DNA from: Vulcanimicrobiota bacterium
GTDB lineage: Bacteria > Vulcanimicrobiota > Vulcanimicrobiia > Vulcanimicrobiales > Vulcanimicrobiaceae
DNA: 64,000 nucleotides
Assembly: GCA_963723515.1 (NCBI GenBank)
Contig: CAVRQT010000003.1
Span: 160,001 to 224,000 of the forward strand
Reading direction: 5' to 3'
Below, piece after piece: positions 3,233 through 25,093 of this stretch. The position numbers and the translations under genes were made by a program. The notes beneath the pieces are model-generated. The model was not told the origin of the DNA. It made no database searches and was given only the letters and a program-made list of their open reading frames with translations. The first letter of the stretch is position 1. Every line of letters starts with the position of its first letter.

Positions 3233-4306
3233 CGTCGCGCCCGAAAGCCGTCGTGCTGGGGGTGCAGCTTCCGCAAGCGCGAGATTCGTTCGCCGCGGAG
3301 CTCGCGGAATTTGCGGCCCTGATCGAGGCGGCCGGCGCCTCCATCGTAGAAGAAATCGTCCAAAGTCGCGCTCGGCTCGATCCAGGATTTGTCGTTGGAA
3401 GCGGTAAGGCGCATGACGTTGCGGATCGCATCTCCGCAACCGCTGCGAAGCTGCTGTTCGTGTTGAATCCGATGCGGCCGCGCCAGCGACGCAATCTGGA
3501 ACGGCTCATCACCGTCCCGATCATCGACCGCACGATGTTGATCCTCGACGTCTTTGCGCGCCATGCCCGTTCGAGGGAAGGCAAGTTGCAAGTCGAGCTG
3601 GCGCAGCTGCGGTATCGGCAATCGAATTTGATCGGCGTCGGGACGCGATCTGTCGCGGCTCGGCGGCGGGATCGGCACGCGCGGCCCCGGCGAGACGAAA
3701 TTGGAGACGGATCGGCGCCGCATCGCACAACGAATCAAAATGATTGCGCATGCCCTTGAAGGCGTGCGCCGCTCGCGTGCGACCCGACGCGACCGCGAGC
3801 GCACCGAGCCGATCGTGGCGCTGGTCGGATACACCAATGCCGGCAAATCTTCGCTGCTGAACCGGCTGGCGCGCGGCGACGCGCTCGTCGCCGATCAGCC
3901 CTTTGCGACGCTCGATCCATTGATGCGCCGCGCTTATCTCGGTGATGGAAGGTTCGTGCGGGTGGTCGATACCGTCGGCTTCATCACGGATTTGCCGCCC
4001 GACCTCGTGACGGCGTTTCAGGCGACGCTTGAAGAGCTGGACGCCGCGGATTTGTTCATCCATGTGATCGATGCCTCAAATCCGGATTGGAGACGGCAAG
4101 TCGCAAGCGTGGATATGATCTTGCACGACTTGCGGCTGAGCGGAAAGCCGCAACTTCTCGTCCTGAACAAGTGCGATGCTCTCGCCGAGCCGCCGCAGGC
4201 GCCGGAACACTTCGACAAGCTCAGTGCGGGCTATCTCTGTATCAGCGCAAAAACCGGCGCGGGCATCGACGCGTTGCGCGCCGAAGTGCGTGAACGTTTC
4301 CCATGA
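3229..4306 (+). CDS. hflX: GTPase HflX (frameshift near 3650; start could be CTG 3229 or GTG 3199)
   Basis: IDRTMLILDVFARHARSREGKLQVELAQLRY, GPGETKLE, G1 GYTNAGKS, FATLD, DTVG, NKCD, SAK. Confidence 0.93.
4208..4230 (+). repeat. Palindromic micro-element (REP-like) inside hflX
   Basis: CACTTCGACAAGCTCAGTGCGGG; 21 of 23 positions match the copy at 17032-17054. Confidence 0.8.
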
Positions 4307-10004: not shown

Positions 10005-10046
10005 CGAAGCAGCGCTCTGGAATCGGAAAATTGCGTGGGTCATCGC

Positions 10047-10821
10047 ATGAGCACCGTTCCCGACGCAACGGAAAACACTCAGGATTTCAACGCACTATGC
10101 GAGCGGTTGCGGCCGCGGTGCGAGGAACTGATCGCGCAATATCCCTCGAAGCGATCGGCCCTCATGCCAATGATGCATCTCTTCGTCGACGAACAAGGTT
10201 TCGCGTCCAAAGACGCGATGTGGTTTTGCGCCGAGCTGCTCGGGCTGACGTCCGCCGATGTCGAGAGCGTCGTCTCGTTCTACACGCTCTTTTTCCAGCG
10301 GCCGATCGGAAAGTATCTCCTGCAAGTCTGCCGCAATTTGTCATGTACGCTAAACGGCGCCGCGAGCTATCATGGCGCACTGTCGCGAGCGCCTCGGCAT
10401 CGACCATCTTGAAACCACCGACGACGGGCTCTTCTCGTATGAAGAAGTCGAGTGTCTCGCTGCCTGCGATCGGGCTCCGTGCATGCAAGTCAATTTGGAA
10501 TTCGTCTATGATTTGACGCCGCAAAAGATCGACGAGATGCTCGCGGCAATCCATGGCGGAAGTTACAAGACGGCGCCCCTGCCGCAAACCGAACGTCCGC
10601 CTCGCACGTGGATCGTTCGGGAGGATCAAGAGATCGCGCAAGGCCAGCGCGCGCCGGGCGCAGCCGGAGTTACGAACCCCGATGACGCCGGCGGAGTCGG
10701 CGACCCGAGCGGCATCATCATGCTCGACCGTATTGTGAGCGATCCGGGGCGTTTCGCAGGCCGCACGCGCGAGCGAGCCGTCGCCGAACCCGCGCAAATC
10801 CTCGAAGCAATTGGAGAGTAG
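10047..10821 (+). CDS. nuoE: NADH-quinone oxidoreductase subunit E with C-terminal extension (frameshift near 10365)
   Basis: VVSFYTLF, CRNLSC and ECLAAC 2Fe-2S ligands split across two ORFs. Confidence 0.9.
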
Positions 10822-10822
10822 C

Positions 10823-12091
10823 GTGGGCGCGTTCGAGCCGATTTTGATGAAAGGCATCGGCGAAGCGAACTTGCGCGACATCAACGTGTATCGTGAGCGC
10901 GGCGGTTATCGTCAGCTCGAACGCGCCTTCAAAGAGTTCACGCCGGCACAATTGCTCGACATGGCAAAGAGCTCGGGACTGCGCGGCCGTGGCGGCGCCG
11001 GTTTCCCGACCGGAACGAAGTGGGGTTTTCTCCCTGGAAGCGATGCACCGCGTTATCTCGTCTGCAACTGCGACGAAGCGGAGCCCGGGACGTTCAAGGA
11101 TCGCATGCTGCTCGAGGAAGCACCGCATTTGGTTCTCGAGGGCATCTTGATCGGCGCGTATGCGATCGGCTGCCGTCACGCATTCATCTACATCCGCGGT
11201 GAATTCAAAGACGGATACGAGATTATGCGTCAGGCCGTTGAAGGCGCTCGCACCGCAGGCTTCATCGGGCGCGACCTTTTCGGCAGCGGATACGACCTCG
11301 AGTTTACGATCCACCGCGGCGCGGGCGCGTACATTTGCGGCGAAGAAACAGCACTGCTCAATTCGCTGGAGGGCAAACGCGGTGAGCCGCGTCTCAAGCC
11401 GCCGTTTCCGGCGACGCAAGGCCTCTACAGCATGCCGACCGTCGTCAACAACGTGGAGACGCTGGCGTATCTCGTTCCGATCATGGAGCGTGGCGCGCAG
11501 TGGTTTGCGAGCGTCGGCTCCGAGAAATCGAAGGGATTCAAAATCGTCTCCGTCAGCGGGCATGTTCGCAACCCCGGCAACTACGAAGTGCCGATGGGCA
11601 CGCCGGTGCGTCAGATCATCGAGCTTGCGGGCGGCGTTCGCGAAGGACGAAAGATCGTTGCGGTGCAGCCCGGCGGCGGCTCATCCGCATGCATCTTCGA
11701 AGAAGACTTCGACTTACCGTACGACTACGAGTCGATGCAGAAGGCCGGCTCGATGCTCGGTTCGGGTGCAATGGTGATCTTCGACGACACGACTGATTTC
11801 GTCGAGGCCGCCCACTCGCTCGTGCGATTTTTTGCGCATGAATCGTGCGGACAATGCACGCCGTGTCGCGAAGGCGGACATTGGCTGGAGCTGACGTTAG
11901 AACGCCTCGTGCATAACCGCGGCGTTCCCGGCGACGTCGAGATCTTGGAAAAAGCATCGCACCAAATGACCGGGCTCAACCTTTGTCCGCTCGGCGATTC
12001 GATCGAGCCGTTTTTGGCTTCCGTCGTCAAACGGTTCCCGGAGCAATTCAATGCGCGCGTTCTAAAATTGGATGGCGCGAAGCGTGGCTGA
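10823..12091 (+). CDS. nuoF: NADH-quinone oxidoreductase subunit F
   Basis: GLRGRGGAGFPTG, GAGAYICGEETAL, ESCGQCTPCREG. Confidence 0.96.
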   Translation: MGAFEPILMKGIGEANLRDINVYRERGGYRQLERAFKEFTPAQLLDMAKSSGLRGRGGAGFPTGTKWGFLPGSDAPRYLVCNCDEAEPGTFKDRMLLEEAPHLVLEGILIGAYAIGCRHAFIYIRGEFKDGYEIMRQAVEGARTAGFIGRDLFGSGYDLEFTIHRGAGAYICGEETALLNSLEGKRGEPRLKPPFPATQGLYSMPTVVNNVETLAYLVPIMERGAQWFASVGSEKSKGFKIVSVSGHVRNPGNYEVPMGTPVRQIIELAGGVREGRKIVAVQPGGGSSACIFEEDFDLPYDYESMQKAGSMLGSGAMVIFDDTTDFVEAAHSLVRFFAHESCGQCTPCREGGHWLELTLERLVHNRGVPGDVEILEKASHQMTGLNLCPLGDSIEPFLASVVKRFPEQFNARVLKLDGAKRG

Positions 12092-14371
12092 TCAAAGCCC
12101 GGGCGTAACCCTCACAATCGACGGCATTCAGCTCAGCGTTCCGAAGAACACGCTGCTCGTTGAGGCAGCCAAGACGGTCCGCAACGAGATTCCGGTCTAC
12201 TGTTACCATACCAAGCTCGGCCCCGCCGGGCTCTGCCGCATCTGTCTTGTCGAGATCGAAGGGACGCCGAAGCTGCAGATTGCGTGCAATACGCGCGTCA
12301 CGGAGGGGATGGTCGTCCATACGCGCTCGCCGCGCGTCAACGACGGACGCCGTGCCGTCCTGGAATTCTTCTTGTTGAATCATCCGCTCGATTGTCCGAT
12401 TTGCGATAAAGGCGGAGAATGCGATCTGCAAGACTTTTCGATGGCCTACGGTCAAGGCCAATCGCGCCTTGCCGATCCGAAAGCGAGCAAACCAAAAGCC
12501 GTCGATCTCGGTCCGACGATCGTCTTGGATGAGGAGCGTTGCATCGTCTGCCAGCGTTGCGTCCGCTTCGACGACGTCATCACGGGCGAGAAATCGCTCG
12601 TCGTCAAAGGGCGCGGCCATCGCGACATCATTGCCACGGCGACGGAAGAACCGTACCACTCCAACTTTAGCGGCAACGTAACCGAGCTCTGTCCCGTCGG
12701 AGCCCTGACTTCAAAGACGTATCGTTTCCGGTCGCGGCCGTGGGACTTGCAGCGGACGAAAACGACCTGCACGCAATGCAGCGTCGGCTGCCAGATGCAT
12801 GTGGACGTTCGTGAAGGCGCGGTGCTGCGCACGATGTCCGTACCGGACGACGACCGGATTTCGGACGGCTGGCTCTGCGACCGCGGCCGCTACAATATCG
12901 GTTTCTACGACGACCCGCGCCGTCTGAATTCGCCTATATATAAGGAAGGCGGAGATTGGGTGCGGCTCGGGTGGGACGATGCGATCGAGCGTTGGGCCTC
13001 CGCGATCAAGGATGCGTTGGCAACTGCCGGCCCGCAATCGATCGGTGTCCTGGGCGGAGGCCGCCTTCTGAACGAAGAGGCCTATGCGCTCCAGCATCTC
13101 TTCCGGAAGCTCGGCATTGCCAACCTCGACTGGCGCGCCGGACGGCAACGGCAGGCGACGCCCGGTCACGAGAGCGGAACGCCGGCCGGCCTCGAGGCCG
13201 CGCAAGCGATCGTCGTTCTCGGGCAATCAGCGGCAGAAACGGCGCCGGTTTTGGATCTGCGGATTCGCAAAGCGGTCATGCATCACGGCGCGACCTGCGT
13301 CGCGATCGATATGCGAGATCCCGCGCCGCCCTATGACTGTCGCGCCGTTGCAACGATTCGGGAAGCAATTGCGGCGGTGCCGCAAGGCGCGCAGCGGATT
13401 GCCGTCGTGTGGGACGGCGTCGATGCGACGGCGGCGCGCGATTTGCTCGCTGGACTGCAAGGCCGCGGCGCGATTCAAACGTTCATTGCCGGAGAGCAGC
13501 CCAATGCGCGCGGCGCTGAAGCGGCCGGCATGCATCCGGCGCTTGGGCCGGCCTACGACGTGCTCTCCAACGCGGGCCGTGACTTTGCAGGCATGATTGA
13601 AGATGCGCGCACCGGCAAATTGCACGTCCTCTGCATTCTCGGCGCGAATCCGGCGCTGCACTTTCCCGACGGCCAAGCGATGCGCGAGGCGCTCGAACGC
13701 GTCCCATTCGTTGCGGTCTCGGAGCTCTTCATGACGCAAACCGCCAGCGCCGCAAATCTCGATCTTGCCGGCCGCCGCGCCATTTGAAAAAACCGGCACG
13801 ACGCTCAATGCATGCGGGGACTTATTGCCGGTGAACGCGGCACGCCAAGCGTTCACGGGAACGCACAGCGATTTGGAAATGATTGCGGGGCTCGCGCAAG
13901 CGCTCGGCGTCGAGATGCCGGCGCTCGATGAAGTGCAGGAGCGCGTGCTCGATTGTGCGGCAGCCAAAGGCAACTTCTCGCTCGGAGATACGCGGCTCTG
14001 TGGCACGCAGCAATCATCGAAAACCGCGCGCCGATCGACTCCAAGTTGCGGTTCAGTCGCGGATCTTCGCAGGCGGTGGAACGGCTGCGCACGACACGTG
14101 GATCGAGGAGTTGCGTCCGCTGCCTGAAGCCGCCGTCTCGCCGGCTGTTGCGCGGCGCTTGAGCATCCAAACCGGTGATTGCATCGATCTGCAAGGTACA
14201 AGCTCGACGATGCACGATCTCCTCGTCGAGGTGCGGCCGAACTTACCGGACGGCGTTGTGGCGGTCATCGACGGTTTGCCGGACGATCCGGCAAACCGCT
14301 TGGGCGACGAGGCATCCGTCTGCGTCGTCAACATTCGCCGCAGCCGCGAACTGGCAGGCGCAGCGTCCTGA
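12084..14371 (+). CDS. nuoG: NADH-quinone oxidoreductase subunit G (frameshifts near 13765 and 14000-14040)
   Basis: CYH...CRICLVE, NHPLDCPICDKGGECDLQD, CIVCQRC, CTQCSVGC (N7-type cluster); molybdopterin-oxidoreductase-like C-terminus continues in other frames. Confidence 0.92.
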
Positions 14372-15983: not shown

Positions 15984-16588
15984 CGCTCTTTTGGATCCTC
16001 GGCATCTTGCTCGTCGCAAGTGCCGTCTTTGTGATCAGCCAGCGCAAGCCGGTATACAGCGTCGTTGGGCTGCTCGTACACTTTGCCGTGCTGGCTGTTT
16101 TCTATCTCACGCTGAATGCGGAATTTCTCGCGGTCATTCAAATCGTGATCTATTCCGGTGCGATTCTGATTCTGTTCGTCTTCGTGATCGCGCTGCTTTC
16201 GAGCGGCGTTTCGGCATTTTCCGTCGGGCCGAACCGCATGCCGAAAGCTGCCGTTCCGGCAGGCGTGCTCGCCTTCGTTGCACTCGCCTTCGTCGTCTAT
16301 GGGATCTTGCGCATGCCGCTCGTCGCCGCCGGCGCGCGTGCCGTGACAACCTCGATTCCGGGAGCCGTCGGCGCGCCGAATGTCTTCGGCAGCGTTGCAG
16401 ATTTCGGACGAGCGCTCTTCACGACGCATTTGCTGCCTTTTGAGATCACGGCTTTCATTCTGATGGTGGCCGTCATCGGCGTCGTCGCTCTCGCCGGTGA
16501 GCAAACGCCGTTCGTCCCATCGTTGCGGCGCGCCCGTGCGGTCGAACGTGAGATGCGCGAAGCGCTCTTGCGCGGCGGCGAGCAGTGA
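15980..16588 (+). CDS. nuoJ: NADH-quinone oxidoreductase subunit J
   Basis: LNAEFLAVIQIVIYSGAI, LLPFEI. Confidence 0.93.
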   Translation: MTLFWILGILLVASAVFVISQRKPVYSVVGLLVHFAVLAVFYLTLNAEFLAVIQIVIYSGAILILFVFVIALLSSGVSAFSVGPNRMPKAAVPAGVLAFVALAFVVYGILRMPLVAAGARAVTTSIPGAVGAPNVFGSVADFGRALFTTHLLPFEITAFILMVAVIGVVALAGEQTPFVPSLRRARAVEREMREALLRGGEQ

Positions 16589-16905
16589 ACGAAGCGGCGC
16601 TGCCGGTCGCGATCGTCAACTACATCGCGCTTTCGGCGGTCATTCTGTTCATTGGCGCGGCAGGCGTCATGCTGCGACGCAACCCGCTGATCATGCTGAT
16701 GTCGATCGAACTGATGTGGAATGCCGCAAACCTGCTCTTCCTCGCCTTCGCGCGCGCATGGCTCAACAACGCCGGACACATCTTCGCGTTCATCGTCATT
16801 ACGGTCGCCGCGGCGGAGGCCGCGATCGGCTTGGCGATTGTGGTCGTCGTCTTTCGATCGTCGCGCACGGTTGACGTCGACGAAGTGACGAGCTTGAGGG
16901 GTTGA
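16585..16905 (+). CDS. nuoK: NADH-quinone oxidoreductase subunit K
   Basis: LMSIELM, VAAAEAAIGLAI. Confidence 0.95.
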   Translation: MNEAALPVAIVNYIALSAVILFIGAAGVMLRRNPLIMLMSIELMWNAANLLFLAFARAWLNNAGHIFAFIVITVAAAEAAIGLAIVVVVFRSSRTVDVDEVTSLRG

Positions 16906-17106
16906 TGCATCAGATACGCCCTGTCACGCTGAGCCTGTCGAAGCGCCACCGTTATCGCGGCATTAAAGTAGCGCCTTTAGACGTGATCCAGGATAGGCTA
17001 GCCAGATTTGCACGACCCTTCGATGCTTCGACACTTCGACATGCTCAGTGCAGGCTGCCGCTCAGCACAGGCGTTCTCAGGGTGACACACCGCTGATGCA
17101 TCAGAT
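16903..17106. mobile_element. 191-bp non-autonomous REPIN/MITE-like insertion with 13-bp target-site duplication and nested palindromic repeats
   Basis: TGATGCATCAGAT at 16903-16915 and 17094-17106; inverted repeat units at 16921-16945 and 17016-17087. Confidence 0.8.
16905..17096 (+). other. 63-codon bridging mini-ORF created by the insertion (MHQIRPVTLSLSK...)
   Basis: Its ATG overlaps the nuoK TGA and its TGA overlaps the nuoL ATG; open across the whole insertion; translation unproven. Confidence 0.5.
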
Positions 17107-19087
17107 TGGCGTTGCCGGAACCTATCCGCTGCTGTATTTGATTTGGCTCTTGCCGCTCGCCGGTGCGATTGTGTGCTGGGCGTTTGGCCCGCAGCTGCGC
17201 ACGCTGGCCGGTTCGCTCGGCAGTGCGGCAATCGGCGCTGCGTTTCTTGCGACGATTCTCTCCTGGGGGAGCGCGATGCAGCGCAGCGGCGGACTGCTCG
17301 GCGCACATCAGCATATCGGCTCCTGGTTCCGCGGCTTCGATTTCGGGCTGCTGCTCGATCCGCTCTCGCTCATTTGGGCGCTAATCATCACGGGCGTCGG
17401 GTTCGTCATTCACCTCTACTCGATCGGCTATATGAGCGGCGATCGTGCGTACGCGCGCTTCTTCGGTTACATGAATTTCTTCGTCTTCGCGATGCTGACG
17501 CTCGTGCTCGCGGACAACTTTGTGCTTTTGCTCGTCGGCTGGGGCCTCGTTGGTTTGGCTTCGTACTTCTTGATCGGATTCTGGTTCGAACGGCCGACGG
17601 CCGTCGCCGCGGCGCGCAAGGCGTTCGTCATCAATGTTGTCGGCGATGTCGCCATGCTCTTCGCAATCTTCATTATCTTTGCAAAGGTGGGCTCGATTTC
17701 GTATGCCGACGTCTTTGCAAATCCAACAGTGCTTGGATCGTCATTATTGCTCGTTTGCATCTGCCTCTTCATCGGCGCGGCGGCGAAATCGGCGCAAGTA
17801 CCGCTGCACACATGGTTGCCCGACGCGATGGAGGGTCCGACGCCGGTTTCCGCATTGATTCACGCGGCGACGATGGTCACCGCCGGCGTCTATCTCGTCG
17901 CCCGGTGCTGGCCGCTTTGGAATGCCTCACATGATGCGCAGACGATTGCCGGCACGATCGGCGCATTGACGGCGCTGATCGGGGCGGTTCTCGGAACGTC
18001 CCAGTGGGATATCAAGCGAATTTTGGCCTATTCGACGATGTCGCAGATCGGCTACATGATCATGGGCGTCGGCGTCGGTGCATATGAAGGCGGCGTCGCA
18101 CATTTCTTTACGCACGCATTTTTCAAGGCGCAGCTTTTCTTGGCGGCGGGGCTCGTCATTCACGCGCTTGCAAACGAGCAAGACGTGCGATTGATGGGCG
18201 GTTTACGCAAACGCATGCCGCTGGCGTTCTGGGCCATGGTGGTCGGCGTCTTGGCGATCTGCGGCGTTCCGGGACTCTCGGGCTTTTTCAGCAAGGACGC
18301 GGTCATCTTCGGAGCGCTCGAGCACGGCCATCCGTGGCTCTATGCGATCGGCATCGTTACCGCGGGCATCACGGCATACTACATGTTCCGGATGCTCTTT
18401 CTGACGTTTTTCGGCGAGTATCGGGGCGAGATGAGGCCGGACGAACTCGGCATTCCGTCCGAGGAAGCGCAAGCGATTACCGCCCTTCGAGAGCCTCAGG
18501 ACGCACATGAGCCGGCGCACGAAGAAGAACATGCGCCGGCGTGGGTGATGAACGCGCCGGTTGCGGTGCTCATCATCCCGTCAATCATTGCGGGCTGGCT
18601 GCTCGTCGGCGGCGAGAGCTCGCCGTGGCACCGGTTCTTCGCGGGGCAATTTCAAACCGTGACCGGCCCGACACCGGTCAGCGAGCTCGTGACGTCGCTG
18701 CTCGTGCTGCTTTTCGTTTTGGCCGGCGTCGCGGTCGCCTATCTGCGTTATGCTGCTGCGCCGGCACTGGCCAACGCGCCGGCGCGCTTGCAACGCGAAT
18801 CGCTTCGCATGCCGGCCGCACTCACGCAGCTGCTGTATTTTGATACCGCGATCGATATACTGTTCGTCAAACCGGCCATCGGTTTAGGGGTGATCTTCGG
18901 CCGTGCATTCGATCCGCACGTTATCGACGGCGCGGTGCGTGAGGCGGTAATTTCCGCCCGCTGGCTCGGGCATCTCTTTCGTAGCTTTCAAACGGGACTC
19001 GTTCGTGCGTACGCAGTGATCATGATCTTCGGCGCGGCATGCTTCATCGCGTATTATGCCTTTGCACGCGGGCTCGTGATGCGCTGA
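17096..19087 (+). CDS. nuoL: NADH-quinone oxidoreductase subunit L
   Basis: KSAQVPLHTWLPDAMEGPTPVSALIHAATMV, HFFTHAFFKA. Confidence 0.96.
   Translation: MHQIGVAGTYPLLYLIWLLPLAGAIVCWAFGPQLRTLAGSLGSAAIGAAFLATILSWGSAMQRSGGLLGAHQHIGSWFRGFDFGLLLDPLSLIWALIITGVGFVIHLYSIGYMSGDRAYARFFGYMNFFVFAMLTLVLADNFVLLLVGWGLVGLASYFLIGFWFERPTAVAAARKAFVINVVGDVAMLFAIFIIFAKVGSISYADVFANPTVLGSSLLLVCICLFIGAAAKSAQVPLHTWLPDAMEGPTPVSALIHAATMVTAGVYLVARCWPLWNASHDAQTIAGTIGALTALIGAVLGTSQWDIKRILAYSTMSQIGYMIMGVGVGAYEGGVAHFFTHAFFKAQLFLAAGLVIHALANEQDVRLMGGLRKRMPLAFWAMVVGVLAICGVPGLSGFFSKDAVIFGALEHGHPWLYAIGIVTAGITAYYMFRMLFLTFFGEYRGEMRPDELGIPSEEAQAITALREPQDAHEPAHEEEHAPAWVMNAPVAVLIIPSIIAGWLLVGGESSPWHRFFAGQFQTVTGPTPVSELVTSLLVLLFVLAGVAVAYLRYAAAPALANAPARLQRESLRMPAALTQLLYFDTAIDILFVKPAIGLGVIFGRAFDPHVIDGAVREAVISARWLGHLFRSFQTGLVRAYAVIMIFGAACFIAYYAFARGLVMR
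18481..18504 (+). repeat. Degenerate palindromic micro-element inside nuoL
   Basis: CGCCCTTCGAGAGCCTCAGGACGC fits the CCTTCGA-N4-CTCAGG pattern. Confidence 0.55.
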
Positions 19088-22383: not shown

Positions 22384-22475
22384 GGATGCTTGATTCGCTC
22401 TCCAAGGCGGTCACAGCTTGCGGGCGGCATGCGTGAAGAATATACTGACGAACTCTAATGAACTCGGGTACGGAC

Positions 22476-23649
22476 ATGAATAAGAAATTGCGTAGCCTCA
22501 TCGTAGCGTTCGCCTTGGCGTTTATTCCGGCGGTCGCAGTCGCCGCCGGGGTGACCAGCAACCCGGACGAATACACGCTTCCGTTCGATTCAAATCCGCA
22601 GGCGGTGATGCGTAGCGCCCGCGAACGCGTGGCGTCCGGCGACCTCGCCGGCGCGATCAAGCAGCTCGCAACGTACGTGAGCGCGCATCCGCGCGAAGCG
22701 GAACCCGCGCGGCTCTTGGGAGACCTCTACTACCGCGAGGGCAATTTCTCGTCGGCGGATCTCGTCTACCATAAGATCCTCGAGTTCTTCCCATACGATC
22801 GCGAGACGCACAATCGCTTAGGCGCCGTCTATGCGACGACGAATCGCGTTGACGATGCGATCAGCGAGTACAATAAGAGTCTGCCTGGCACGGACGCCGT
22901 GCCCGATTTGGTTTCGCTTCATGCGCGCAAGGGCGATTTGCCGGCTTACATTGCCGACGTGCAACGTGAAGCATCGCTCGGCCCGAGCGATCCCGATGCG
23001 CAGCACTCGTTGGGTTCGCTCTACCTTTCACTCCACGATTACGGGAACGCGCTGAAGTATTTCTTGCGTGAGCTGGACATCGTGCCGAATTCGTTGCCGG
23101 GGCTCAATCAAGCCGCGGTGACGTATATGGATCTTGGCGATTATGAGAAGGCGTTCACGCTGCTGCAATCGTTGTCTGCTCAAGGACGTGACGAGCTACG
23201 CCTGCACGGTAAACTTGGCCGCGGGAGATCTCGAAACGCGTAGTTACGACCAGGGCCGCTCGTTGCTCGATCGCGCGAAGTCGCTCGAACCGGAGCATCC
23301 GGAAATCCTCGTGAATTACGGCTACCTTCAGGATGCGCTCGGCGACTGGAAAGGCGCGGTGGCAGATTATGTGAAGGCGCTGGCGATCTCGCCCTATTCA
23401 CGCGATGCGTATTTGAATCTGGGCATCGATTACGAGCAGCATCATCTCTACGATCTGGCCGAATCGGTTTTGCTGAAGGGCTTGACGGTTGCGCCGCAAG
23501 ATGCGGCGCTGCATTACTGGCTGGGTCGTACGTACCAGGATCAGCACAAGGTCGATTTAGCGGTCAAGCAATTCCAGGCGGCTGCACAAACGAGTGACGC
23601 GCAAGTTGCAAACCTCGCGAAAATGAGGATGGCGCAACTCAGCCACTAG
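22476..23649 (+). CDS. Exported tetratricopeptide-repeat protein (frameshift near 23165)
   Basis: Signal peptide followed by multiple TPRs (e.g. THNRLGAVY, AYLNLGIDY, LHYWLGRTY). Confidence 0.85.
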
Positions 23650-24046: not shown

Positions 24047-25093
24047 CTATCGGCAACTGTCACCCTGAGCTGCATCGAAGGGCGACATGGTGCCTTTGTA
24101 CTTCATCGGCGTCTCTTCCATGCCGAAGTTATCTGCGTACAGTGACGAGATTCGCTCCAATTCGTCTCGTGTGAGCGGCGCAGTATCGGGCGCCTTGGCA
24201 AATTCGGTCAATTGTTCTTCATCGTAGATGTTCGGCAAGACCGTCATGATGCGCGGTTCCGCGAGCAGCCATTGAATTGCGGCTTGCCCGAGCGTGCGCT
24301 CGGGCGTCTCGAGAAAGCGCAGCTGTTCGATTTTCTCGATGCCGTTCAAGAGCCAGGAGCGCGGCCGATGGCGGCGGTGGTCGCCGGCCGGGAACGTCGT
24401 CTCGGCAGTGTATTTGCCCTCCAGCATCCCGCTTGAGTGCGGAACGCGCACCATATAACCGGTATTCGCTTGCGCTTCGTAGGCCGCGCGCAGCATCTCA
24501 TTGCCGGGATACTGCTCGAGAATGTTCCAGATCATCTGAATGCTTGTCACGTTGCGTGTCCGCGCCGCTTCGATCCCTTCGACGAGCCACCCGATGGCAG
24601 GGCCGAGCGCAACGCCGTAATAGCGAATCTTGCCTTCCGCTTTAAACGATTCGAGTAGCGCGAAGAGCTCATCGCTCTGGATCTGATCGAGATGCGCGTT
24701 GTGGATCTGGTAGAGATCGATCGTGTCGGTTTGTAAACGGCGCAGCGACTGCTCGAGGGCGAAGCGCACGAACTTCGGTGAGAAGTCGGCCGGAATCTCT
24801 TGCTGGCCTTTGCGCTCGCCGGCGTAGTTGTAGAAATCGTAGCCGAACTTCGTCGCGTAGACAACGCGCTCACGGCGACCGGCAAAAGCTTTCGCTAGTT
24901 GTTGCTCGCTGCGGCCGTTGCCGTATGTATCGGCCGCGTCGAAGAGCGTGATGCCGAGATCGAACGCTTTTTGCAGCAACTCAATGGCCTGGTCATCCGT
25001 CTTGTCGCCCCACCAGCCCGTTGAGGTGGTCCACAGACCGAAGCCGACCTCGCTGACGAGCAGATCCGTCTTGGGATACGGGCGATATTTCAT
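24047..25093 (-). CDS. Aldo/keto reductase
   Basis: GITLFDAADTYGNGRSE, ATKFG, SLRRLQTDTIDLYQIH. Confidence 0.92.
   Translation of the reverse strand: MKYRPYPKTDLLVSEVGFGLWTTSTGWWGDKTDDQAIELLQKAFDLGITLFDAADTYGNGRSEQQLAKAFAGRRERVVYATKFGYDFYNYAGERKGQQEIPADFSPKFVRFALEQSLRRLQTDTIDLYQIHNAHLDQIQSDELFALLESFKAEGKIRYYGVALGPAIGWLVEGIEAARTRNVTSIQMIWNILEQYPGNEMLRAAYEAQANTGYMVRVPHSSGMLEGKYTAETTFPAGDHRRHRPRSWLLNGIEKIEQLRFLETPERTLGQAAIQWLLAEPRIMTVLPNIYDEEQLTEFAKAPDTAPLTRDELERISSLYADNFGMEETPMKYKGTMSPFDAAQGDSCR
24057..24084 (-). repeat. Palindromic micro-element forming the C-terminal codons of the aldo/keto reductase
   Basis: Minus strand CGCCCTTCGATGCAGCTCAGGGTGACAG. Confidence 0.8.

Follow-up and report, generated by a model that had tools for sequence, protein, structure and literature searches.

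The nuoK-nuoL junction

We analysed a window of 64,000 nt (G000:C3:160001-224000) from a 2.11-Mb genome that is 88% complete. Hairpin repeats separate two genes that, from their translations and operon order, we take to be nuoK and nuoL. Two kinds of repeat unit are distinguished throughout: LONG, which has a TGTCA leader and is of the CGTC/Ssn-like REP type, and SHORT, which measures 23-25 nt and ends in CARG(C)(T). The features of the junction are as follows (window positions):

16585..16905, plus strand: nuoK-like gene (flank), from translation and operon order
16903..16915, plus strand: left copy of a 13-bp direct repeat, spanning the nuoK stop and an overlapping ATG; ends 6 nt before the left TGTCA leader
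16905..17096, plus strand: repeat-derived mini-ORF of 63 codons, from the nuoK TGATG overlap to a duplicated TGATG overlap with nuoL
16922..16945, plus strand: partner LONG unit, opposite in orientation to the outer unit, with which it makes a REPIN-like inverted doublet
17016..17087, minus strand: outer LONG unit, its loop widened by two SHORT units; the TGTCA leader occupies minus-strand 17087-17083, and the arms are CTGAG and TCGAAG
17024..17071, plus strand: middle SHORT unit including the inner insert; type TGC...CA-CAGG, core CGCCG
17033..17056, plus strand: inner SHORT unit of 24 nt with CAGG-CT as its end, inserted behind the middle unit's first loop C (our own parse)
17094..17106, plus strand: right copy of the 13-bp direct repeat, a TGA overlapping the nuoL ATG; begins 6 nt after the right TGACA
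17096..19087, plus strand: nuoL-like gene (flank), start inferred by alignment to relatives

The 72 bases at 17016..17087 are a LONG repeat with a TGTCA leader, whose loop holds a 24-base SHORT unit that in turn holds a second SHORT. A preliminary description of the window had placed this triple nest of hairpin units correctly but took all layers for a single type of micro-element; the outer layer is LONG, a nuclease-associated REP of known type. Its statement that stepwise removal restores intact units stands when the inner unit is excised as 17033-17056 (24 nt, ending CAGGCT), which regains the common core CGCCG, and fails for 17032-17054 as first proposed, which leaves a 6-nt core, CTGCCG, absent among un-nested cores. 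The outer unit retains the remainder CGTT, unusual as a LONG loop. The composite of middle and outer units recurs at C3:989318; with CGTC as the remainder it is also present at C1:86187 and in the congener G001. It therefore probably arrived as a ready-made double.

Most relatives with a readable junction have nuoK and nuoL nearly abutting (5 nt apart in G001), without units. Among 28 relative loci with a nuoK match, units were present only in G006, as an independent LONG array of 1.1 kb (two rows of this comparison come from the unpublished genomes G020 and G022; no conclusion depends on either). Read from the sequence, an inverted LONG pair was inserted here between nuoK and nuoL, with a 13-bp duplication of the stop/start overlap. 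The edges of the doublet lie 6 nt outside the TGTCA leader on both strands, in this one case. The duplication is real but not general: of 24 inverted clusters, one has a symmetric duplication of at least 9 bp (control, 0 of 186), which speaks against target duplication as a general rule for doublets. A lone LONG gain at G188:C2:~1509939 has a 15-20-bp duplication starting 6 nt past TGACA, the offset of the window doublet. The mini-ORF is not conserved, and the same span is open in 13.5% of shuffles; upkeep of its frame may preserve translational coupling to nuoL.

Elsewhere in the window we noted an additional LONG unit (~24056-24082, minus strand), a degenerate SHORT unit with the tail CGGG-CT (4208-4232, plus strand) and a degenerate unit, TTCGA-GAGC-CTCAG, in frame within the nuoL-like gene (18483-18505, plus strand), where it reads ALREPQD in a variable His/Glu-rich loop. 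Frameshifts seem to split nuoE-like, nuoG-like and TPR genes (10035-10821, 12072-14371 and 22458-23649). Those in the nuo genes, and others in pckA, suggest uncorrected indel errors in the assembly, and single-base claims at single loci in this genome are therefore insecure.

Two repeat families in the genome

A genome-wide scan bore out the unit as a repeat: TTCGA-N3-8-CTCAG has 220 matches, against 10 for the reversed control, and the commonest distance from one CTTCGA to the next is 8 nt (30 cases; other distances, 1-11 cases). Sorted by right flank, the 210 units with a 3-6-nt core comprise 121 LONG (ending NN-TGAC), 51 SHORT (NN-CARG) and 38 others. SHORT rises to 60 once TTCGG is allowed; 31 of these lie directly after the TTCGR of another unit (chance, 0.0036 per position), 27 are free and 2 are in tandem. 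Three left arms are stacked at five loci, four of them complete triples, one beside the nuclease gene described below. The triple nest is real, and nesting is general: it occurs dozens of times in this genome and, among the matches listed, in many bacterial phyla. Composite forms here resemble those in records of Ca. Elarobacter and Ca. Cybelea.

The co-varying stem flanks had earlier been read as a conserved hairpin, and the counts agree with that reading: the inner variable pair of LONG is complementary in 103 of 116 units (2000 shuffles: mean 42, max 61) and the outer pair in 107 of 116 (shuffle mean 83, max 95). The invariant arms CTGAG/TCGAAG are non-Watson-Crick; we presume that they make tandem G.A pairs on the minus strand, a predicted motif that ViennaRNA does not model. 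That program gave no significant fold of the units (z -1.1 to +0.7), and Rfam covariance models had 0 matches to them at E<=1. The predicted hairpin is thus argued from covariation together with the presumed G.A motif. The leader of SHORT is GCYTG, and a variable base pair comes next. The unit is asymmetric, has a tail on one side only and shows no duplication; it does not fall under MITEs as defined by terminal inverted repeats plus target-site duplication.

Two other repeats were observed. A third family (G000:C2:544575, C3:30511, C4:1158 and others) carries, in about half of its copies, the bare hairpin core without the CARG tail. A MITE-like repeat of ~160 bp (L233:15907-16064, L236:11670-11838), unrelated to the hairpins, is present in G001 in at least 8 copies that are 83-90% identical.

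Junctions and unit length

Insertion is at the first base of the loop, in either orientation, with no target duplication and with ends that vary by about one base. In this genome the host-loop remainder almost always starts CT. Where SHORT lies in SHORT, the remainders are CTGCCG (twice), CTGTTG, CTGCTG and CTATG; each equals a different host loop plus one T, and they therefore represent independent events under one rule. The simplest parse would be NC-TTCGA-core-CTCAG-NN-CARG-CT, a 24-nt unit that enters behind the loop's first C; twelve nested copies begin with T, and there the host C must be lost. Among 30 parsed nests, 27 combinations of outer, inner, core and remainder are distinct. Head-to-tail SHORT arrays at 121 metagenome loci have a period of 24 nt in 63, 23 nt in 15 and 25 nt in 2, and a reading frame is open in 38 of 52 of the 24-nt arrays versus 4 of 13 of the 23-nt arrays.

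A GTDB scan for the nested pattern returned at least 126 loci. The pattern demanded CTTCGA before and C after, so it measures breadth and junction forms, not preference. Across 80 titles, nested matches fall in Pseudomonadota, Bacteroidota, Chloroflexota, Planctomycetota, Verrucomicrobiia, Binatia, Dadabacteria, Nitrospinales, Nostoc, Ca. Elarobacter and Ca. Cybelea (phylum assignments presumed). Of the 129 matches listed, 92 have the host right arm and 37 are unresolved; the remainders in those 92 are exactly CAGG/CAAG in 36 and CCAAG in 13, with other forms fewer. Among the matches listed, the exact TTCGA|C junction is the commonest form across phyla. An archaeal match (L117) and a Nocardioides match (L119) lack the host right arm and were left uncounted as nests.

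Target sites and recent gains

All 31 nests in this genome have one orientation, after TTCGR. The first 30 of the 57 sites in G134 divide into 9 SHORT units with the nesting seen in this genome, 11 reversed between CTGAG and TCGAAG, and 10 free. The reversed nests occupy the equivalent loop position, and in all 11 the outermost pair is a C.A mismatch, which would follow if the host supplied the first C. Since SHORT enters the loop in reverse after CTGAG at 11 of 30 sites, the site is a position within the hairpin family and not the TTCGA sequence alone. The proposal that the unit targets its own TTCGA motif is not supported, as an unrelated repeat and coding sequence are also hit; nor is the insertion always TTCGA|C, for junctions vary by about one base and sometimes include donor flank.

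The 27 free SHORT sites here share no common 5' flank, and free units show no enrichment in generic hairpin loops (3 of 27, against 75 of 400 random positions); over three sets (3/27, 5/10 and 11/47, against 17-19% random) no loop preference was seen. Four of the eight copies of an unrelated repeat contain SHORT, which enters before a C, and the next four bases differ between filled and empty copies. This GC-rich repeat lies directly before housekeeping start codons at G000:C2:636862, C2:631499, C2:570100, C2:596827, C2:785302, C2:12689, C3:287075 and C3:760917; among the genes behind it are some that we take to be rpmH-, gyrB-, atpA-, rbfA- and rplW-like.

SHORT amounts to 8 codons, and five of its six frames are open in 58 of 60 copies. 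Genes for GidA/TrmFO, FadB, RNase E/G, an aminotransferase and a HAD hydrolase carry free units in frame. The HAD hydrolase gene is 24 nt longer than 3 of 3 aligned orthologues; FadB has no match in G001. The pckA gene differs from 6 of 6 orthologues by a 25-nt gap and has two more frameshifts nearby, so that decay and assembly error are indistinguishable. A G134 gene carries 24 nt missing in all 23 aligned congeners (top 25 of 59 matches, one being G134 itself and one unaligned), with ~10 host bases replaced. Between G134 and G188 (335 kb aligned, 90% identity), 11 G134 sites divide into 2 shared, 6 clear gains and 3 unclear, and the gains often have donor flank joined by microhomology. Comparison with G001 gave net differences of +15, +23 and +21, this relative being too distant for clean junctions. 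The earlier view of a very small mobile unit is supported, as is repeated insertion at the loop start.

In one linker of a membrane protein gene (L229 site, G134:C8:133373; orthologues L300, L305 and L321), SHORT was gained in the G134/G209 line, and independent repeat insertions are present in G191 and G368.

A GIY-YIG nuclease gene flanked by LONG

The preliminary description postulated a trans-acting enzyme encoded outside the window. This is probable, and the candidate is a 100-aa GIY-YIG gene at C3:290985-291284, 114 kb from the window nest, with inward LONG units on both sides. The protein matches PF01541 only (E 2e-14) and is, like Ssn, a single-domain protein below 150 aa. Inward LONG units on both sides are also present at 21 of the 30 best family homologues, with lineage-specific leaders; the published SRM is in the flanks of 0 of 30. 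The nuclease profile matches 26 of 50 cross-phylum genomes with nests and none of the other 24, and cross-phylum homologue loci have inward hairpins on both sides in 17 of 30 (leaders TGTCA, CCGTTCG and others). No hairpins were found beside 18 viral homologues.

Across 206 family genomes, at least 5 LONG units occur in 102 of 105 with the nuclease versus 52 of 101 without, a contrast confounded by kinship. Kin being likewise not independent in the remaining tallies, at least 3 SHORT units occur in 58 of 105 genomes with the nuclease versus 15 of 101 without, and in 72 of 154 with at least 5 LONG versus 1 of 52 without. All 14 genera with at least 3 SHORT possess both LONG and nuclease. Among these drafts, nine genomes have at least 100 LONG and zero SHORT, and four have at least 10 SHORT and no nuclease match. 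The tallies include the unpublished genomes G022, G257 and G272, and G022 is also one of the 30 homologue loci; no conclusion rests on them.

SHORT units flank no gene of their own. Neither a homologue nor a recurrent candidate gene lies within 1.5 kb of the 121 tandem-SHORT metagenome loci, no dedicated gene stands beside SHORT clusters in 13 stretches from relatives and 11 from this genome, and SHORT never forms the flanking pair of the nuclease gene in the homologue loci examined. PF01797 (Y1/RAYT), PF02371 (IS110) and PF00078 (reverse transcriptase) have no match in this 88%-complete genome.

A tree of 39 rows, which lacks N. meningitidis SsnA and has flagged long branches, sets three SRM-flanked proteins apart (branch 4.8, 100/100) and puts the YazA-type proteins in a further group (branch 3.06, 99/97). 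The best PDB matches of the nuclease are UPF0213 proteins, NCBIfam has no family for it, and one NTS-flanked gene scores 82 bits against its profile. We therefore call the nuclease Ssn-like, not a filed Ssn member. A second small GIY-YIG gene (L002) was set aside: it lacks repeats and groups with YazA. The nuclease reading frame often extends into the repeat downstream, and its last residues, STSSV or PSTGSG, are then encoded by repeat sequence (L001:1423-1450; L175, L182, L187, L199-L201). In G006, a transposase remnant that we take to be IS110-like lies within a dense LONG/SHORT cluster (L034:1330-1915).

Relation to known repeat systems

The accessible text on Ssn nucleases with NTS/SRM repeats (Chenal et al. 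2025, PMC11893778) describes a ~100-aa single-domain GIY-YIG gene with inward-pointing flanking hairpins, a GTC leader preceding an A...T palindrome, dispersed copies in the hundreds and a loop that tolerates extensions, all of which recur here. The word 'nested' is absent from that text, as is anything resembling SHORT. Unlike that system, the published SRM pattern fits neither LONG nor SHORT (its 9 matches in the genome are unrelated), the nuclease proteins branch apart from SRM-flanked examples in the long-branched tree lacking SsnA, and the stems carry the invariant CTGAG/TCGAAG mismatch motif.

CGTC-tagged REPs, as the accessible text of Di Nocera et al. 2013 (PMC3733652) presents them, have a TGTC/CGTC tag, an 8-9-bp stem and a 4-5-nt loop, form head-to-head dimers and occur in intergenic and intragenic copies. 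LONG shares these features, its stem counting two non-Watson-Crick positions, whereas SHORT lacks the tag. Neither motif appears in the accessible content of four supplements of PMC3733652, and LONG may equal one of CGTC-2 to -4. The same text reports these REPs without a dedicated transposase and makes no mention of nesting. Rickettsia palindromic elements resemble SHORT as in-frame palindromic repeats that add residues to working proteins (PMC3733652, accessible text). SHORT differs in being only 8 codons long, in its open frames and in nesting within hairpin loops.

RAYT is the HUH (Y1) transposase of REP and REPIN repeats. In the accessible text of PMC3733652, such a gene is flanked by its own repeats and the repeats form doublets, as here, and the window doublet has a duplicated flank; yet this 88%-complete genome has no Y1 transposase, the enzyme class is another and duplications are not general. 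IS621/IS110 elements, IS1397 and the recombinase of Neisseria filamentous phage insert into REP or dRS3 loops. They resemble SHORT as mobile DNA landing in the loop of a palindromic repeat, but are kilobase-sized, carry their own enzyme and duplicate a core, whereas SHORT is a 24-nt, gene-less unit without duplication. For the Neisseria phage recombinase, dRS3 targeting is noted in the accessible text of PMC11893778.

Comparison with known REP classes, which could have removed the novelty claimed at the outset, did so for the host alone: LONG is a variant of the CGTC/Ssn-type repeat system, a kind already known, while the loop-nesting SHORT was not found described. In the literature searched, which covered few subscription papers, neither the nested unit nor its motif or peptides were described. 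SHORT as a loop-nesting unit, and its junction record, appear undescribed in the searchable literature.

How SHORT may spread

We favour, at somewhat short of an even chance, the reading that SHORT is a separate gene-less repeat family spreading via the GIY-YIG nuclease whose gene LONG flanks. The nuclease would nick LONG and SHORT hairpins when these are single-stranded; a nick at the 5' edge of the loop would leave a 3' end able to prime synthesis on a cut donor hairpin, TTCGA homology favouring the same orientation and microhomology permitting the rest. Copying would run off the cut end of the donor, giving the CARG, CARGC or CARGCT right junction, host ligation would seal the insert, and composites would then spread as whole cassettes. 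The tail of SHORT, CARG-C-T, equals a host loop plus the first two bases of CTCAG, which suggests that SHORT began as a hairpin core that took over the right half of its host. SsnA is described in the accessible text of PMC11893778 as cutting single-stranded DNA 4 nt 5' of CGTCA and tolerating loop extensions; cleavage is known there, mobilisation only hypothesised. The SHORT leader GCYTG lacks the GTC that SsnA cleavage requires, and cutting of a SHORT donor here is conjecture. Taken whole, the claim of a pan-bacterial, gene-less element of 23-25 nt, a loop parasite that adds 8-residue inserts to proteins and is moved through nick-primed copy-in by a GIY-YIG clade that is uncharacterised and separate from Ssn, is for now doubtful. 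Duplication of the local upstream flank by a flap in cis found no support: in 30 of 47 truncated arrays the first copy agrees with the second at no more than one upstream base, which is also what the control shows.

The main rival, unlikely though it seems, needs no dedicated enzyme: host replication or repair stalls at these hairpins and switches template to another copy, gene conversion between copies spreads the nested cassettes, and the nuclease explains LONG only. Junction microhomology, carried donor flank and small deletions fit such switching, as does the lack of any gene linked to SHORT; LONG units nested in LONG have identical cores, 8 of 15 with a 7-nt left offset (background, 53 of 330), and the tail of SHORT could be of host origin. 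Template switching accounts poorly, however, for a single fixed junction rule over different host loops, for reversed nests without arm homology and for a defined unit of 23-25 nt with a conserved tail across phyla whose host leaders differ.

Three further explanations are each considerably less probable. That nesting is rare and ancient, with only composites copied now, would fit the 13 CCAAG remainders, mostly in Comamonadaceae among the matches listed, four near-identical tandem copies at C3:373-374 kb and the middle-plus-outer double common to G001; against it stand the 27 distinct combinations among 30, species-specific gains in genes and four triple nests that differ in the middle or outer layer. 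The sequence-specific mobiliser first proposed, recognising TTCGA|C and pasting precisely, would account for the uniform orientation of 31 of 31 nests after TTCGR and for exact CAGG/CAAG in 36 of the 92 resolved GTDB matches among those listed. It conflicts with the reverse nests after CTGAG, the 27 free sites without a common 5' flank, the unrelated repeat as host and the one-base heterogeneity, and the GTDB pattern itself demanded CTTCGA, so that preference is not measurable from it. Cut-and-paste by an unlinked HUH (RAYT or IS200-605) or IS110 enzyme would fit the lack of target duplication, the single-stranded hairpin and the terminal CT, reminiscent of those families, and the IS110-like remnant in the G006 LONG cluster, but the Pfam searches found none of these enzymes in this 88%-complete genome, and there is no fixed target tetranucleotide, no duplicated core and no precise end.

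Significance

Multiplication of CGTC-type REPs is a puzzle, since the accessible text of PMC3733652 reports them without a transposase. If the nuclease-mediated reading is true, it would be the first evidence that small GIY-YIG single-strand nucleases move their own repeats, and SHORT, if mobile via the nuclease, would be among the smallest mobile DNAs. Nested copies record the junctions of individual insertions and therefore allow a base-level prediction for the purified 100-aa protein and two oligonucleotides: a join at the first loop base, with the donor terminating at CARG-C-T or shortly, by a few bases, beyond TGACA. The analysis may point to a further clade of hairpin-specific single-strand nucleases with possible value as tools. 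For the bacteria that carry it, SHORT alters proteins, and it may mislead annotation in many phyla.
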